Assembly (NCBI GenBank): GCA_963682135.1
Contig: OY821645.1
Location: forward strand, 640,001 to 704,000
Origin: Methanothrix sp.
Lineage (GTDB): Archaea; Halobacteriota; Methanosarcinia; Methanotrichales; Methanotrichaceae
DNA: 64,000 nt
Direction: 5' to 3'
Shown piece after piece: positions 16,549-56,411 of the stretch. The notes below the pieces were generated by a model, which was not told the origin of the DNA, searched no databases, and saw only the letters and a program-made list of their open reading frames with translations. How positions within the stretch are numbered: position 1 is the first letter of the stretch; each line of letters begins with the position of its first letter. The position numbers and the translations under genes were made by a program.

Positions 16549-17100
16549 CTATCCGCCATTCCTTTTTATTTCATCCATAAACTTGTTCCATTTTTTCGCC
16601 TGGTCAACCTTTCGCCTGATCAGGTCCTCTGCGCCGTATTCTGTCAGTGTGCCATGTTCTCTCTTCTTTAGGATATCCTTGAGATCCAAAAGGGCTCTAA
16701 TTATGCTGGCAGCTTCATCGTGAAGCTCTACTGCCTGTTTTAGGTTCAGCTTTGCCGCCTTGAGATCTTCCTCGTCTTTCTTCTCCTTCTTATCCAATAT
16801 CTCGATCAACTCGTTAATCTGCAGCCGCTCTTCATCTGTTATCTCCTTCTCGTTGATCAATCTCCAGATGAGGCGATGCAGATCAACTCGACCCTGTCCG
16901 GCATGAATTTCGGGCGGCAGATCCTTTTCCGTCTGATGATACTTTTCCATCTCGCTTCGGAGATCATTGCCGTCTATCTGCATCTGCTCCGGTTCTGTAG
17001 CTCCTACCCATACCAAGAAATGATGAAGACTGGCCAGCAGTTTTGTTCGTTCCGCCTCTGTCAGATAATCAGTAATGTCCTTTTTTTCAATTTCAGACAT
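16549..17100 (-). CDS. Conserved archaeal coiled-coil protein (DUF5788-like)
   Basis: ERTKLLASLHHFLVWVG...IIRALLDLK; ATG 17100 with GAGG upstream. Confidence 0.7.
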   Translation of the reverse strand: MSEIEKKDITDYLTEAERTKLLASLHHFLVWVGATEPEQMQIDGNDLRSEMEKYHQTEKDLPPEIHAGQGRVDLHRLIWRLINEKEITDEERLQINELIEILDKKEKKDEEDLKAAKLNLKQAVELHDEAASIIRALLDLKDILKKREHGTLTEYGAEDLIRRKVDQAKKWNKFMDEIKRNGG

Positions 17101-17289
17101 GAATCCTCTTCGAATCGTTTTGCATTTATCTTCGGCCCTGAGATCATGCCGGCTCGCCAGAAGCGTTTTGGCGATGCTGCGCGGCGGGATGCAACGCCAA
17201 TCGAACGCGGTCAATTGGTTGTCTATCTACCTGACCATTATGCGCAATACTTGAGGTCATCTCCGAGGCCTTTTTTTGCATTGGGCGGC

Positions 17290-17302
17290 AAAAGTTTTAT
17301 AG
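17290..17302 (+). promoter_or_regulatory. Putative BRE/TATA promoter for leuA
   Basis: AAAAG-TTTTATAG about 25-30 nt before ATG 17325, implying a leaderless mRNA. Confidence 0.55.
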
Positions 17303-17324
17303 CTATGGATGCTATCCTTGATCT

Positions 17325-17381
17325 ATGACACACGAAACCTCTGTGGGGAATCGTCTTCTACGACGTTCGTTCGCTTGTTGA
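17325..17381 (+). other. Short upstream ORF overlapping the leuA 5' end ([18 protein letters not shown])
   Basis: ATG at predicted transcript start; CTT CTA at 17355-17360; leuA lies in its +1 frame. Confidence 0.55.
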
Positions 17382-18897
17382 TGAAAAAGTCCGCATTTTT
17401 GACACGACTCTTAGGGATGGCGAGCAGACTCCCGGCGTATCACTCAATTTGGACGATAAGCTCAAGATCGCAAGGCAGCTTGATAAACTCGGTGTGAATG
17501 TTATCGAGGCTGGTTTTCCCGTATCCTCCAAAGGCGAGTTTGACAGCGTCCGGCAGATTGCCAGAGAGGGCTTGCAAGCCCAGGTCTGCGGCCTCTCTCG
17601 CATTGTGAAAAAGGATGCTCAGGCATGTCTTGATGCCGATGTGGGCATGGTGCATGTCTTCGTCCCTACCTCCGACATCCAGATAGCTCATACTATTAAG
17701 AAGAGCCATGATGAGATTGTGGCCGGAGCAATGGAGACTGTGCAGTTTGTCAAGGACAACGGCAGAACATGTCTCTTCTCTGCCATGGATGCCACCCGCA
17801 CCTCGCCGGAGTTCTTGCATCGCATCTTCAAGGCAGTGGAAGAAGTGCACTGCGATATAATCAATATCCCGGACACGGTAGGAGTAGCAGCTCCATCTGC
17901 TTTCTACCGTTTTGTCAAGGATATCTGCGATGATGTGGATATGGTAGTTGATGTGCACTGCCACAACGACTTCGGTCTGGCTGTGGCTAACAGCCTGGCG
18001 GCAGTCGAGGCAGGAGCCAGAGAGGTCCAGGTCTGCGTAAACGGACTGGGCGAGAGAGCTGGCAACGCCAACCTGGCCGAGACAGTGATGAGCTTGCATG
18101 CCATTTATGGTGCTCGCACCAGCATAAAGACGGAATACCTGGTGGAGACAGGCCGCATGGTAGAGCGGCTCACCGGGGTTAAGATTCCCATAACCGCACC
18201 CATCATAGGCGATAATGCCTTCTCCCATGAGAGCGGCATTCACAGCCACGGAGTTATCGAGAACAGCAAGACCTTTGAGCCAGGCATCATGACACCGGAG
18301 ATGGTAGGCCACAAGAGACGCATAGTCATGGGCAAGCACACGGGACGGCACGCTGTGGCCAAGGTGTTGGAGGAAGGGGGCTACCTGCCCACGGAAGAGC
18401 AGCTCCAGGAAATCCTGGAGAGGATCAAAGAGCTGGGCGACAAAGGAAAGCAGATTGCCAATATCGATCTTCAAGCCATTGCCGATGTGGTGATAGGAGA
18501 AGTGGCCAAAGGCAGTCAGGCTGTGATTCTCAAAGAGGTCTCAGTCATGACCGGCAACATCATCACCCCCACAGCAACCGTAAAGGCCCTGGTACGAGGT
18601 AAAGAGAAAGTTCTCGCCCATATCGGCGTGGGGCCGGTGGATGCCGCCGTAAATGCCGTGCAGGGCCTCCTGGAAAGCGATACATCAATTCACCTCTGCG
18701 ACTTTCGAATTGAGGCCATTAGCGGCGGGGCCGATGCCCTGGCGGAAGTGGTGATTGGCGTAGAGGACGACCGGGGACGCAAGGTCAGCGCCAGATCGGC
18801 ACGCGAGGATATAGTCATGGCTTCAGTGGAGGCTCTGGTCAGCGCCATAAACCGTTTGATGCTCCTCAATGACGCAGCAGAACGCAAGAAGGCTTGA
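17341..18897 (+). CDS. leuA: 2-isopropylmalate synthase (start non-canonical)
   Basis: [17 protein letters not shown] lies upstream of the track's TTG 17449; HCHNDFG, GERAGN, HESGIH, C-terminal regulatory domain; open frame begins after TGA 17326-17328. Confidence 0.85.
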
Positions 18898-50216: not shown

Positions 50217-51212
50217 TTATTTCTTCTGCAGCCAGGGCATCATAGCTCGCAGCTCTGCGCCCACCTGTTCGATGGGGTGCTCGGACTCAATCTTTTCCAG
50301 GGACTTCTTAACGGGAAGACCGGCCTGGCTCTCCAAAATCCACTCGCGTGCGAACTCGCCAGACTGAATCTCCGACAGAATTTCCTGCATTTCTGCTCTG
50401 GATTCCTCATTGATAATTCTCTGGCCGCGGGTCATGCCGCCGTACTCTGCCGTGTTGGAGACGTTGTTCCACATGCGCATGAATCCGCCCTCGTAGATCA
50501 GGTCCACAATCAGCTTCAGCTCATGGCAGGCCTCGAAGTAGGCGATCTCCGGCTGGTAACCGGCATCCACCAGCGTCTCAAAAGCAGCCTTGATCATCTC
50601 GGTAACGCCGCCACACAGGTCCACCTGCTCGCCGAACAGATCGGTCTCCGTCTCCTCGGTAAAGGTGGTCTCAATGACACCGGCCCTCGTGCCGCCGATG
50701 CCCTTGGCATAGGCCAGCGCCTTCTTGAGAGCTGCACCGGAAGCGTCCTGCTCTATGGCCACCAGACAGGGCACGCCCTTGCCTTCCTGGTAGGTGCGTC
50801 GCACCAGGTCCCCAGGCCCTTTGGGCGCTATCATGACCACATCCACGTTCTCGGGCGGCACAATCTGGAAGTAGCGAATGTTAAATCCGTGCGAGAAGCC
50901 CAGAACCTTGCCTTCCTCCAGGTAGGGTGCAATCTGCTCCCGGTAGATCTTGCCCTGGTACTCGTCCGGCAGAAGGATCTGAATGTAGTCTGCCTTCTTG
51001 GCGGCATCGGCCACAGACATGACCTTCACTCCATCCGCCTCAGCTCTCTTCCAGGCCTTGGAGCCCGGCAGGTCGGCAGCGATAACATCCAGCCCGGAGT
51101 CCTTCAGATTCTCACCCTGGGCATGTCCCTGATTTCCCCATCCCACTATGGCGATGGTCTTGTCCTTCAACACCCTCAAATCTGCATCCTTTTCATGGTA
51201 TATCTTCACCAA
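50217..51212 (-). CDS. ilvC: Ketol-acid reductoisomerase
   Basis: [33 protein letters not shown]. Confidence 0.97.
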
Positions 51213-51307: not shown

Positions 51308-51799
51308 TCAAGCCTTGACTACCCTCGCTCCCCTCACCATCGATACTTTGCCGGTGCGGGCGATCTCCTTTATGCCGAACTGACGCAGCAGTTGAACAAT
51401 GGCATCGACCTTCTCCTCGTCTCCCGTGACCTCAATGATCATGGACCGGTGCGAGACATCGATGATCTTGGCCCGGAAGATGTTCACGATCTGCATGATC
51501 TCGCTTCGGCTCTCTTTGTCCGCGTTCACCTTGATGACTGCCAGCTCCCTCTCCACAGACTCGCTCGCCTCAAGCTCGCTGACGCGAATGACGTTGATGA
51601 GCTTGGAGAGCTGCTTTATTACCTGCTCCAGAACATCCCGGTCGCCATGCACGGTGATGGTCATGCGCGAGTAATCGGGATTGTCCGTCGCTCCTACCGA
51701 GAGGCTGTCAATGTTAAACGACCTGCGGCTGAAGAGGCCGGCGATGCGCGTTAATACACCGGATTTGTTCTCCACGATTACGGCAATGGTGTGCTTCAT
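51308..51799 (-). CDS. ilvH: Acetolactate synthase small subunit
   Basis: [21 protein letters not shown]. Confidence 0.96.
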
Positions 51800-53554
51800 C
51801 TAGAACCCCTCCTGGCCCAGGATATCCTTTCTGCCTTGAGCATAGATCTTCTCCAAATGGCAGGATTGGTCAACATCACACCACTCCAGCTCCAGAATTT
51901 CGCTTAAAGTGGCTCCAGCCGGAACCATAGGCGAGACCTTCTCAGCTGGGCTTACGATGAAATCCATGACCACCGGCCTATCTGTTGCCATTGCGGCGCG
52001 AATTACCGGCTCAACTTCGGAAGGCTTGGTGGCCCGCAGGCCCACCGCCCCGTAAGCCTCGGCCAGCTTCACGAAATCAGGGCTTGTGCGTCCCAGAATG
52101 GTAGCCGAGTATCTCTTCTCAAAGAACAGCTCCTGCCACTGCCGAACCATTCCCAGGCAGCCGTTATTTAGCACAGCGACCTTCACAGGAATCTCATTGA
52201 CGACCGCCGTCGCCAGCTCCTGGCTGTTCATGAGGAAGCTTCCATCTCCTGCCACGTCGATGACATCGCACTCCGGCCGGCCCATCTTGGCCCCGATGGC
52301 AGCGGGAAAGCCGTATCCCATGGTGCCGAGGCCCCCCGAGGATATGAACTTTTGCGGGTCCTTATGCACAAAGAACTGCGCTGCCCACATCTGGTTTTGC
52401 CCTACCTCAGTGGTGATAATGGCATCAGGCGCGACTTCGCACAGCTTCTCAATCACATATTGCGGCTTGATGATATTCATATCAGGAATGTAGCGCAGAG
52501 GATAGTCCTTCTTCCAGCCTTCCGTCCTCTCATTCCAAAGGCTTCTGCCTTTGGGGCTGACCTCTTTTAAGAGTCCTTGCAAGGCATTTTTTGCGTCCCC
52601 AACAACTGGAATATCCACCCGTACATTCTTGCCCACCTCAGCCGGATCGACATCGATATGAACGATCTTAGCCCGCGGCGCAAAGCTTGCGATCTTGCCT
52701 GTAACGCGATCATCGAATCTTGCGCCGATAGCTAAAATGAGATCAGACTCCTGAATGGCGTAGTTGGCATACTTTGTGCCGTGCATTCCCAGCATGCCCA
52801 GAGAGAGTTGATGATCCTCAGGAAAACAGCCCACGCCCATCAGAGTAGTAGTAACCGGAGCGTTGATCTTGACTGCCAGCTCTATGAGCTCGCAGTGCGC
52901 ATTGGCATACTTTACTCCGCCGCCCACGTAAATAACGGGCCTTTCCGCCTCCATCAGCGCTTTGGCTGCTTTCTTGATCTGCATCTCATGCGCTTTAAAG
53001 GAAGGGCGATAGCCGGACAGCTCCACCTCCGGCCAGGTAAACTCGACCTCATCCACAGTCACATCTCTGGGCAGATCGATCAGCACAGGTCCGGGGCGGC
53101 CTGTACGAGCGATGTAGAATGCCTCCCGGAAGACGCGCGTGATCTCCTTGGCGCTTCGCAGCAAGTAATTGTGCTTGGTAATGGGCAGAGTGATCCCGGT
53201 TATATCCGCTTCCTGAAAAGCGTCCTTTCCAATTAGCCAGGTGTTCACCTGGCCGGTGATGGCCACCATGGGCACGGAGTCCATGTAGGCATTGGCAATA
53301 CCGGTTACCAGGTTGGTAGCCCCGGGACCGGAGGTGGCAATGCACACTCCTACCTTTCCCGTGGCTCGGGCATATCCATCCGCCATATGCGCAGCACCTT
53401 GCTCATGGCGCACCAGAATATGATGAATATCGGACTGGTAGATGGCGTCGTAAAGAGGCAGCAATACTCCGCCGGGAAGCCCGAATACTACATCTACTCC
53501 CTCTCTCTTCAAGCTCTCCAGTACTGCCTGAGCACCCGTCATCTTTTGAGACAT
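51800..53554 (-). CDS. ilvB: Acetolactate synthase large subunit
   Basis: [22 protein letters not shown]. Confidence 0.96.
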
Positions 53555-55062
53555 TTGGCTTTGTCCTCCTCTTCCAGTCGCATCAGCCGGTTGATGCCAT
53601 CCAGCACCGCTTCGACCGATGCCATGATTATGTCAGTGCCGGCTCCTCGAGCCGTTATCTTCCTGTCTGCCATTGCCATCGTCACCCATACTTCTACAAG
53701 TGCATTCGTTCCGCCTGTTATGGCGTCTACATGATACTCTTCCAGCCGCACATCCGCCACATCTGACATGGCTCTCCTTATGGCATTTATGGCCGCATCC
53801 ACCGGCCCGACTCCGGTTCCCGCCTCAAGCTTAATAGCTCCGTTAAGCTGTATCTTCACCGAGGCGGTAGGCGTCACCGTATTGCCGGCCACCACTGTCA
53901 CCTCTTGCAGCTTCACCTTCGGCTCCATCTGGATGGAGAGAACGGTGTCGGCTATGGACTGCAAATCAGCATCAGAGACACGTTTGCCTTTGTCGCCCAG
54001 CTCCTTTACCCTTTCAACTATCGAAGCCAATTGTTGCTCGGAAACCTGGAGTCCGAACTCGCGCAAGGCCAGTTCGACTGAGGCCCGACCGGCGTGCTTG
54101 CCAAGAACTATGCGCCTCTTTCTGCCCACAGTCTCCGGATGTATCGGCTCATAGGTCCTGGTATCGGCCAGGAGCCCGTGCACGTGAATGCCCGCTTCAT
54201 GCGTAAAAGCATTCTCGCCGACAATTGATTTGTTAGGGGCCATGGGAAGACCGGTCATTCGCGAAACCAGCCGAGATAGCTGGTATATGTCCTGGCATTT
54301 GATCCCGGTGTCGATTTTGTAGAGGGATTCCAGAGTCATGACCACCTCTTCCAGGCTGGCATTGCCGGCTCGCTCGCCTATACCGTTCACGGTCACGTGC
54401 GCCTGGGCTGCTCCGGCGCGAAGGGCCGCTACGGTGTTGGCGGTAGCCATGCCGAAGTCATTGTGGCAGTGGACACTGATCGGCGCTCCCAATTGAGACA
54501 ACCGGGAAAATATTTCCCCTGTCATCTCGGGGACCAGCACCCCTACTGTATCACAAAAAGCCAGCCGATCGGCTCCTGCCTCGATTCCCGCCATGTAAAG
54601 GCTGCTCAGATAATCCAGATCGGCCCGGCTGGCATCCTCACCGGAGAGCTCTACAATGAGGCCGTGATCTTTGGCATATTCTGTCACCTGCACAGCCCTA
54701 TTTATTACCGATTTTCGGTCGGATTTCAGCTTGCACGCTATGTGAAGATCAGATACCGGTACCACAAGATGGACGGAATCTACATCGCATGCCAATGCCG
54801 TGTCAATATCAGCGGTCACCGCTCGAACGTAGCTGCATATCTCCGCCTTGAGGCCAAAATCAGCAATTGCTTTTATCGATAGGCGTTCACCTTCTGAGGT
54901 CATGGCTGAGCCCGCTTCAATCACATCCACGCCCAGAGAATCGAGCCCCTGGGCGATGGCGAGCTTCTCATTCATGCCGAGTGATACACCTGGCGTCTGT
55001 TCACCATCACGTAATGTAGTGTCTAGAAAACGTATTTTACCAAATAAATCGATCCCACGCAT
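53539..55062 (-). CDS. cimA: (R)-citramalate synthase
   Basis: [25 protein letters not shown]; first gene of the ilvBHC operon (LeuA/CimA assignment by context). Confidence 0.8.
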
Positions 55063-55238: not shown

Positions 55239-56411
55239 ATGAAGTGCAAATCATTGTATCTTTCTATAGCTGTGCTCTTGTGCCTTATGACAATGCCCTT
55301 TTTGCTCAGCAATACGGCATTTGCAGGAGTAGGATGCGGCAGTAATTGGATGGGCGATACAACTGGGGATACAGACTTTTATGTGAGCAAAAACCAAAAC
55401 CAAGGTATCTCCGGCACATCATCGGCTGCACAATCTTCAAAGCCCGCTGTGACCCTTGGAGAGGTAGCCAAAATTAACAAGAATGCTACGATTCAGAGCA
55501 TAAATCCGGACAAGCCCAGTCCCCAAAGCCCCGGGTCCGTCGTTGTCTGGAAGGTTGAGGCATCCAACTCCGATAATGAAAAAATGCTCTACAATTTTCG
55601 GCTTATGGGACCCGCGACCGGCGGGCAGCTTAAAGATGAGACCGGCTGGATAGCCGAGAATTCCTGGACCTGGAACACTGCAGACGCAGATGCCGGGGAA
55701 AATCAAATTGAGGTACAGGTAAAGCGTTCCGGATCTGCCGGATTTGAGGACAGCAAGGTAAATAGCTACGTCATTGCATCATCGGCAGTTTCAGTTGCTG
55801 CATCATCCGGCACTTCATCAACCTCTGCTTCCAGTACAACATCCTCCGTAGGGGAGGGTCATCCTGAATCAAAAACGGGTGAGCCCATTTCTAGCAGGCC
55901 CAGAGTTGCGCCTGATGAGATGACGCGAGCAGTTTCAACAACAAGCGGGCCCAACATGCAAATGCCCGATACACAACCCAAACCTCTGAATACTCCCACC
56001 ACCACACAGGGGGTAGCAGAAACGGCTGGGATTGGGACTGAGCAGACGCAGGTCCAACCTCAGGATCCTGAGTTTATGGAAGTGGAGGGCAAGTGGACAG
56101 TAAAGCTGGAAAATGATGGCGCTACCCTAAACCCTCTCACAATCATCCAAACAGGAGGAAGTGTCATGGGCATGGGCACTCTCAATGAGAAGAACACCAA
56201 GCTTCAGGTCAGCTCCAAAGGTTCTGTTTCCAATAACGCCATGAGTCTTGATGTATGGACAATAGTCTCCGAATATGGAAATAAGATAGATAAGCGCATA
56301 AGTCTCGAGCTTGTCAAGGTAGATAGAGCAATATCCGGAAGCTATGAAATGTACTCGGGCGAAGATCTGATCAGCAAAGGGAATGCCACCGCCACCAGAT
56401 TTGCATCTTGA
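55239..56411 (+). CDS. Secreted protein: Ig-like domain, Ser/Thr-rich linker, C-terminal beta-barrel-like domain
   Basis: Signal peptide; PDKPSPQSPG...W..ENSWTW; EGKWTVKL...QTGG.V.GMG. Confidence 0.8.
   Translation: MKCKSLYLSIAVLLCLMTMPFLLSNTAFAGVGCGSNWMGDTTGDTDFYVSKNQNQGISGTSSAAQSSKPAVTLGEVAKINKNATIQSINPDKPSPQSPGSVVVWKVEASNSDNEKMLYNFRLMGPATGGQLKDETGWIAENSWTWNTADADAGENQIEVQVKRSGSAGFEDSKVNSYVIASSAVSVAASSGTSSTSASSTTSSVGEGHPESKTGEPISSRPRVAPDEMTRAVSTTSGPNMQMPDTQPKPLNTPTTTQGVAETAGIGTEQTQVQPQDPEFMEVEGKWTVKLENDGATLNPLTIIQTGGSVMGMGTLNEKNTKLQVSSKGSVSNNAMSLDVWTIVSEYGNKIDKRISLELVKVDRAISGSYEMYSGEDLISKGNATATRFAS

Follow-up and report, generated by a model that had tools for sequence, protein, structure and literature searches.

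Programmed +1 frameshifting in prfB, the gene for bacterial release factor 2, makes use of a short 5' open reading frame (ORF), a CTT codon in the ribosomal P site, a Shine-Dalgarno-like (SD-like) tract located 3 nt upstream, and an A-site codon that is read slowly. In the yeast element Ty1, the CTT of CTT-AGG-C likewise occupies the P site ahead of a slow sense codon, and shortage of the aminoacyl-tRNA drives the shift. Here we describe an arrangement of this kind at leuA, the gene for 2-isopropylmalate synthase, in a 64,000-nt stretch of a Methanothrix genome (contig OY821645.1, positions 640,001 to 704,000; the whole stretch is referred to as the window, and coordinates are those of the window). 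No canonical start codon is available in the LeuA frame, which lies in +1 relative to a short leader ORF, and a prfB-like programmed +1 frameshift at CTT-CTA (17355-60) is put forward as the event by which LeuA would be made, a proposal on which we remain evenly divided.

The likeness to prfB extends to several elements: a short 5' ORF is followed by a main product in the +1 frame, the P-site codon (CTT or TTT) would re-pair one base forward, an SD-like tract lies immediately upstream (2 nt here, 3 nt in prfB), and the A-site codon would be slowly decoded, at a rate that would report the level of the end product. Unlike in prfB, the slow codon is a Leu or Ile sense codon instead of a stop, the sensed molecule would be a charged tRNA instead of a protein factor, and the host is an archaeon whose mRNA is probably leaderless in this family, with the shift being proposed from sequence. 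The locus shares with Ty1 the P-site CTT followed by a presumably slow sense codon and the idea that scarcity of an aminoacyl-tRNA drives the shift. Laboratory 'hungry codon' frameshifting is described in passages of a 2021 review (PMC8211752); in contrast to both precedents, the present case would represent conserved cellular control of amino-acid biosynthesis, equipped with an SD-like stimulator. Bacterial leu, ilv, and pheL attenuation (for pheL, parts of PMC3082878) also relies on a tiny leader ORF with a codon for the amino acid of the pathway, as seen here with Leu for leuA and Ile for cimA-ilvBNC. The archaeal leaders differ in having one regulatory codon and no run of such codons, and in an output that would be a change of frame and not read-through; moreover, no conserved terminator or antiterminator structure was detected, and the locus therefore does not qualify as an attenuator of the bacterial type. 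Among Archaea, the -1 shift in fucA1 of Saccharolobus solfataricus is named in passages of the 2021 review (PMC8211752) as the sole experimentally shown cellular frameshift, +1 cases having merely been suggested. Both fucA1 and leuA are archaeal cellular genes spread over two frames, whereas the fucA1 shift goes by -1 at an A-rich heptamer, is confined to very few strains, and has no known regulatory logic, and the leuA arrangement is +1 and found class-wide and beyond.

No description of the arrangement was found in the literature searched on frameshifting combined with leuA, isopropylmalate synthase, or citramalate synthase in methanogens. The part of the M. mazei ribosome profiling (Ribo-seq) paper covered by a term search (PMC11456600) contains no frameshift, leuA, isopropylmalate, or citramalate, while its supplementary lists of upstream ORFs may already include the leaders; likewise, none of these genes occurs in the first 300,000 characters of a 2016 frameshifting review (PMC5009743). 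As far as these searches reach, programmed +1 frameshifting at this locus appears to be previously undescribed, and we propose it on the strength of sequence comparison. If a slip driven by scarce charged tRNA does operate at both leuA and cimA, no earlier +1 frameshift in archaeal cellular genes would match it in breadth of conservation, and no hungry-codon sensor would have been found before in the natural control of amino-acid biosynthesis; the site would link charged-tRNA supply directly to enzyme synthesis in a domain where translation-level regulation of amino-acid biosynthesis is little described.

A leader ORF and LeuA in two frames

The LeuA frame spans from the TGA at 17326-28 to 18897, and reading and translation of the region from 16900 to 17700 yielded no ATG, GTG, or TTG before the DTTLRDGEQ motif, the GAC of which lies at 17401. 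This agrees with the initial annotation, which had also placed a TATA box upstream of ATG 17325 and an 18-aa ORF in the -1 frame of LeuA behind that ATG. Both were confirmed: the box, TTTTATAG at 17295-17302, is part of a promoter element comprising a B recognition element and TATA box (GGCAAAAGTTTTATAG, 17287..17302, forward strand), and the ATG opens a leader ORF of 18 codons (ATGACACACGAAACCTCTGTGGGGAATCGTCTTCTACGACGTTCGTTCGCTTGTTGA, 17325..17381, forward strand) that stops at TGA 17379-81 and has only two Leu codons, CTT at 17355-57 and CTA at 17358-60. LeuA is in the +1 frame relative to this leader, the frame of which is called frame 0 below. An SD-like tract (GTGGGGAATC, 17343..17352, forward strand), which contains an ATC at 17350-52, ends 2 nt before the putative shift codon. 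The proposed shift site CTTCTAC (17355..17361, forward strand) would have CTT as P-site codon, CTA (Leu) as A-site codon, and TAC as the first codon in +1, so that the synthase coding frame would extend from 17359 to 18897 on the forward strand. The enzyme contains the DTTLRDGEQ motif and matches NF002085 (2-isopropylmalate synthase) with 697 bits at a cutoff of 517, but the paralogue described below reaches 643 bits with the same model, and NCBIfam fails to separate LeuA from CimA here; the protein is assigned as a putative LeuA by its relationship to proteins whose source names read 2-isopropylmalate synthase.

An identical layout is present in 19 of 20 same-genus loci. The promoter element (17287..17302) is invariant or nearly so across these 19 loci, the leader ATG follows it invariantly by ~22 nt, and the block CTGTGGGGAATCGTCTTCTACGACG, a frame-0 stop near 17379, and the lack of any start in the enzyme frame are retained. 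The 20-mer GGGGAATCGYCTTCTACGAC was found in 51 of the 58 genomes of the genus, and the CTTCTAC site is invariant in the genus except in G363, where TTT replaces CTT. The leader of locus L006 carries an in-frame insertion of 9 nt.

Given this conservation, a sequencing or assembly indel, which the initial annotation had listed as an alternative, or a decaying pseudogene has next to no chance of being the correct explanation. The same frames recur in 19/20 same-genus loci and in 46/50 genus-level genomes, the other ~500 codons are intact and vary in a codon-like manner, and contigs from two other runs (X1, X2) match positions 17200-17900 with no change and no indel, although these runs are possibly the source of the assembly themselves. 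Contigs from X6 span the site in relatives and are free of indels, while a contig of the RNA run X10 begins at 17382, past the shift site, and is hence uninformative on it. What speaks for an indel is that one relative does have two 1-nt insertions in this stretch; set against the evidence above, the indel reading is refuted for practical purposes. The relative in question, L002 (G012:C3, locus ~1500-1690), differs from all other same-genus loci in having one insertion in the leader and one inside DTTLR, which between them bring the leader ATG into the enzyme frame at the cost of a corrupted DTTLR (protein P0126). It looks like an artefact of assembly or of frame 'correction', in a genome of 6 contigs that is 75% complete. 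Loss of one base from the A5 run that follows ATG 17381, a reading that would give MK(K)VRIFDTT, was considered and rejected, as both the ATG and the A-run are unconserved in the genus.

Signals for initiation precede the leader ATG. A TATA-like element starts 28-31 nt before it in 15 of the 16 loci listed for family f1, and elsewhere an SD sequence takes this place (GGAGG 6 nt upstream in f7, GAGGT in f6, GGTGAT in parts of f3, and GTGAT in f16). In the loci with a leader, no comparable signal is seen ahead of the enzyme frame. In archaeal promoters, the spacing between TATA box and start predicts a leaderless mRNA at such a distance; because the TATA box lies 28-31 nt upstream, at 30 nt in the window, the leuA mRNA is probably leaderless and would start at ATG 17325. 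Codon-position diversity over 41 distinct f1-like sequences also separates two coding regions: in leader codons 2-7, diversity is highest at the third positions of frame 0 (0.195, 0.152, 0.301), and past the shift site the variation peaks at third positions of the +1 frame (0.297, 0.265, 0.465), so that the coding phase switches across the motif.

To evaluate the SD-like tract, duplexes were computed between the 13 nt before the NTT codon and the 3' tail of 16S rRNA from this genome, with 5000 random coding 13-mers of the genome as background. The median over 45 genus-level leuA loci is -11.5 kcal/mol, within the top 0.8% of the background; for cimA-type loci, it is -8.85 kcal/mol (n=38). The duplex, formed by GAGGGATC in most other lineages as the counterpart of 17343-17352, ends 2 nt before NTT, close upstream as expected of a stimulatory element at +1 sites. 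The initial annotation had pointed to a G-rich tract upstream of the slip site; this idea stands, in that the G-rich stretch belongs to a longer one predicted to pair with the 16S tail, but in this genus the pairing is weaker than elsewhere.

The genome, a single contig of 3,043,341 bp, uses CTA as its rarest Leu codon (6.7 per 1000, 5th rarest of 61), and the two frame-0 codons that follow, CGA and CGT, rank 4th and 2nd by rarity. Each of the tRNA-Leu species GAG and UAG is encoded by a single copy, and one tRNA gene serves CTA. The frame-0 sequence at 17358-17378 reads CTA, CGA, CGT, TCG, TTC, GCT, and TGT, of which four rank within the genome's five least used codons, TGT being the rarest; this run of rare codons may simply arise from out-of-frame reading. 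ARAGORN with introns allowed returned 51 tRNAs, including ones with the unusual anticodons Phe AAA and Ile AAT, calls that are probably false.

Based on these observations, translation would begin at the leader ATG 17325, and after 11 codons the ribosome would hold peptidyl-tRNA-Leu on CTT 17355-57 and await decoding of the rare CTA 17358-60. The SD-like tract ending 2 nt upstream would pair with the 16S 3' tail, the P-site tRNA would re-pair one base forward on TTC, and TAC would be read next, giving the synthase in the +1 frame; ribosomes that do not shift would terminate at TGA 17379-81. Scarcity of Leu-tRNA would raise the frequency of shifting, and leucine shortage might thereby turn on the first leucine-specific enzyme. 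The shift itself and its exact codon are what we infer here, whereas sensing of Leu-tRNA at CTA would be a further step built on the shift, and the one observation that points to it is the contrast between Leu and Ile codons in the leuA and cimA leaders.

The leader across the class and at cimA-ilvBNC

The distribution of the motif was surveyed with a wider search pattern, in which GGRATYGNYTTYTAY is followed after 27-45 nt by TTYGAYACNAC, and with the reversed pattern as control. Of the 392 genomes of the class, 321 contained exactly one match each, spread over 41 of the 49 genera, and the control gave none. In an even draw of the phylum, 38 of 151 genomes matched, 13 of these 38 being among the 126 genomes outside the class: all ten of family f16, and one of one each in f13, f22, and f32. 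The pattern was absent from the drawn genomes of f9, f10 (24 genomes), f15 (11), f17 (19), and others.

The 5' ends of both paralogues were then parsed from 50 genomes representing 49 genera. Forty-six of the leuA-type loci contain a leader that runs in frame 0 from an ATG to the terminal series NGG, RAT, YGN, NTT, and Leu codon. Orthologues of other genera and families follow the same design in different letters; the conserved core consists of the SD-like tract, 2 nt, an NUU codon, the Leu codon, and an early stop. In these 46 loci, NTT is found at the P-site position and is always followed by a Leu codon at the A-site position (CTA, TTA, or, in genus g23, CTG). A frame-0 stop occurs no more than three codons after the Leu codon in 37/46 loci, where our own arithmetic would expect ~13% by chance. 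By reading of the parsed loci, ~36/46 have an open stretch in the enzyme frame devoid of ATG, GTG, or TTG, and in these as in the window a functional LeuA would be encoded by an upstream ORF followed by the +1 frame, with no independent canonical start downstream. In 20/46, a stop immediately precedes the GGR codon of the enzyme frame, and therefore the frame change, or any start, is confined to the five-codon motif NGGRATYGNNTTYTR. The leader ATG lies 7 codons before NGG in 16 tabulated f1 loci (the leader of G325 being read by eye) and most genomes of f3; in f2, f4, f6, f7, and f8 the distance is 4-6 codons. In f16 the leader is reduced to ATGAGGGATCGTTTTTTATAA, 6 codons encoding MRDRFL behind GTGAT, a brevity that argues against sensing through the nascent peptide.

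Alignment of leuA 5' regions, a comparison proposed in the initial annotation, reveals that the leader ATG, its frame, the early stop, and the YTT-Leu pair are kept across the class, and these comparative data lend support to its core claim that LeuA needs a +1 frame change from the ATG-17325 leader at the CTT-CTA named there. Four of the 50 genomes are exceptions. G025 (g2) and G088 (g35) begin at ordinary start codons and lack the motif, as does G086, a second g35 genome that was fetched separately; G042 and G047 (f5) have the motif without a leader ATG. The lineages with an ordinary start (g35, g2, and one Methanocellales protein) are devoid of the GIxFY stretch, which the enzyme thus does not require.

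Within this Methanothrix genome, a relaxed scan for the motif returned eight places, of which only leuA and cimA qualify. The other six were rejected since their +1 frames are open for a further 11-252 codons upstream, and four of them (41-252) lie inside longer open frames.

The second qualifying site precedes a paralogous cimA-type synthase (53539-55062, reverse strand), which is 45% identical to LeuA and heads an operon with ilvB (51800-53554), ilvN (51308-51799), and ilvC (50217-51212), all on the reverse strand. Relatives of the paralogue are named (R)- or D-citramalate synthase in JGI and some NCBI records. Its leader, ATGAATGCGTGGGATCGATTTATTTGGTAA (MNAWDRFIW, 55066-55037, reverse strand), has TTT followed by ATT (Ile) and is preceded by GGTGAT at 55077-55072. 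The core is that of the leuA leader with an Ile codon in place of Leu, and the cimA-ilvBNC leader would work in the same manner with this Ile codon. Leaders with Ile codons were found in 17/17 cimA-type loci of f1, 4/4 of f6, 3/4 of f8, and 1/2 of f5, and most f3 loci have ATT-ATT. Over the parsed set, the A-site codon is Leu in 46/46 leuA-type loci and Ile in ~38/50 cimA-type loci. The Ile codon alternates between ATT and ATC, with Phe, Leu, or Ser as the overlapping +1 residue, and in 15/17 f1 cimA-type loci a GGT (Gly) codon makes the leader stop. The f3 cimA-type leaders begin with GTG, CTG, or ATG directly before AGG, and f7, f2, and f4 differ again. In the window, the second ATG (55062-60) of an overlapping ATGAATG is in the enzyme frame, and starts for leader and enzyme are both available; such an in-frame ATG (ATGAATG) is present in 16/17 f1 cimA-type loci, where cimA may consequently work without recoding. 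The 5' ends of f7 cimA-type genes (L129, L114, L120, L123) show a Thr/Ile-rich N-terminal extension in the enzyme frame (RGIRITDTTGT...), with a His/Arg-rich overlapping frame and no canonical start evident.

Extended to both genes and to Methanosarcinia with some neighbours, the proposal would be one of frameshift attenuation, in which LeuA and CimA, the first committed enzymes towards leucine and isoleucine, are made only through a +1 slip at NUU on a leader of 6-19 codons, while the next codon (Leu or Ile) awaits a scarce charged tRNA and an internal SD-like tract assists. We put this generalization forward tentatively, with rather more doubt than belief. Judged from how the relatives are named at source, Methanothrix, Methanosarcinales, and Methanoperedens belong to the class. 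The site is testable in genetically tractable methanogens, and swapping the Leu and Ile codons between the paralogous leaders would be a clean experiment on specificity.

Proposed site of the frame change and alternative starts

Several lines of evidence favour a +1 shift at CTT-CTA: the initiation signals precede the leader ATG, the frame-0 stop comes early, the geometry resembles that of prfB, the codon differs between the Leu and Ile pathways, and GIxFY is absent wherever a normal start exists. In most leuA-type loci, CTT or TTT stands before C or T, which would allow good +1 re-pairing as judged from the anticodons and common pairing rules. The A-site codon is also constrained in frame 0, because the CTA to CTG change in g23 is synonymous in frame 0 but replaces Tyr by Cys in +1, and because the cimA codon is always Ile, as ATT or ATC, while the +1 residue is Phe, Leu, or Ser; a four-fold variable frame-0 CGN codon was counted for the same constraint. 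Other findings weigh against this reading. The same-genus locus that was scored (G005) forms a weak SD-like duplex of -6.7 kcal/mol, and P-site re-pairing would be poor for GTT (g29) and, in cimA-type leaders, for ATT and for TTT before A. The genome does not avoid CTT-CTA as an in-frame dicodon, with 83 occurrences compared with 65 expected. Downstream of the site, a conserved RNA structure was looked for and not found, RNAalifold giving no consensus pairs over 38 genus-level sequences. Inside the motif, diversity peaks at frame-0 first positions (0.286, 0.01, 0.043), and most variation is synonymous in +1, where GGR, ATY, TTY, and TAY encode Gly, Ile, Phe, and Tyr, a pattern that looks like translation of the enzyme frame from the Ile codon or before.

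This pattern would be expected if translation started at a non-AUG codon, namely the Ile codon at 17350-52 (ATC here, ATT or ATA in other loci), either directly or through re-initiation once the leader ORF has ended, a possibility that the initial annotation had left unconsidered and that we regard as unlikely but of real weight. The leader would then serve only to supply ribosomes or limit their flow, with its Leu or Ile codon arising as a side effect of Phe-Tyr or Leu-Phe in the enzyme frame. Two sets of loci that also count against the shift lend themselves to such a start: f5 (4 genomes) keeps the motif without a leader ATG and, downstream of a stronger GGAGG/GAGGAG, has ATA in the Ile position (ATG in G046), so that this site is apparently the only option there, and the cimA-type locus of G095 has ATG at the same position. 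NCBI starts the Methanoperedens protein P0227 at the Ile codon (MVFYT), and an in-frame ATG two codons earlier (MRGI/MRGV) is present in 16/17 f1 cimA-type loci, in 8/9 of g45, and in G184, G145, and G146. However, the proper initiation signals precede the leader ATG and not the ATC; the latter is in frame with the enzyme but falls within the predicted 16S-pairing tract, or 1 nt past the GAGG core of that tract, a distance probably too short for a P-site start by the usual spacing rule. In g47 (3 genomes) the position is occupied by GTT, with no canonical +1 start and with leader and TTT-TTA kept, and g45 has GTC there. Moreover, the ATC would be masked by any ribosome that stalls on the Leu codon, giving feedback of the wrong sign, and a non-AUG start leaves unexplained both the early frame-0 stop and the GGT that makes the stop in 15/17 f1 cimA-type leaders. 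A described counterpart for such a start is infC (IF3), an essential gene with a near-cognate AUN start (AUU), a likeness that pertains to this alternative only; unlike in infC, no factor-discrimination logic is evident here, and the overlapping leader ORF holds real initiation signals.

A +1 shift could also take place earlier, if the tRNA on a P-site NGG codon re-paired with GGR before the Ile codon was read. The enzyme frame would then include Gly-Ile-x-Phe-Tyr in translation, and the Leu codon would play no part. This would account for the +1-synonymous pattern from Ile onward and is compatible with a stop directly before GGR, and AGG to GGG re-pairing should work well for tRNA-Arg(CCU), as reasoned from anticodons. 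Yet the codon sits inside the SD-like tract, the A-site codons there are GAT or AAT (AGT in g45), and neither the conservation of NTT and of the Leu/Ile codon nor the frame-0 constraint seen in CTA to CTG and in ATT/ATC is accounted for; we consider this earlier shift quite improbable. The CTG at 17341, which some pipelines annotate as a rare but ordinary start (MWGIVFY, as in P0123, P0124, and P0130) and which the initial annotation had named as an alternative, is conserved within the genus, but a different codon occupies the position outside it, and the stop directly before GGR closes the enzyme frame downstream in 20/46 genus-level loci, so a start at this codon is not general. Having no SD ahead of it and a gap of just 16 nt from the predicted 5' end, it is a very improbable start.

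Gene models and minor observations

Public records disagree on where leuA starts, with CTG (MWGIVFY), ATT (MFDTT), ATC (MVFYT), or a truncated gene, and annotated LeuA lengths scatter between 400 and 538 aa, compared with 478-512 aa (mostly 500-509) for the paralogue. Whichever mechanism holds, the leuA models in public databases are erroneous or inconsistent in hundreds of cases. In G022 and G020 of the same genus and in G316 (g11), which are 93-97% complete, the LeuA-type query matched only the 44-45% paralogue and a short copy resembling homocitrate synthase, and the leuA-type gene may be missing altogether.

The leader region gave no Rfam match at E <= 1, and the structure score of the region in the window is z = +1.1 relative to shuffled sequences. 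A 221-aa ORF (16549-17214, reverse strand) diverges from leuA, and the region upstream is unconserved in the genus. Neither this ORF nor a 390-aa ORF (55239-56411, forward strand) beside the second leader has an NCBIfam match at E <= 1e-10. Besides, the GGGGAATC of the leader (17345-17352) is identical, in the sense orientation, to the helix-45 loop region of the 16S rRNA of the same genome (16S 3' ends at C1:2880402, 2993941, and 2215743), which is possibly a coincidence.

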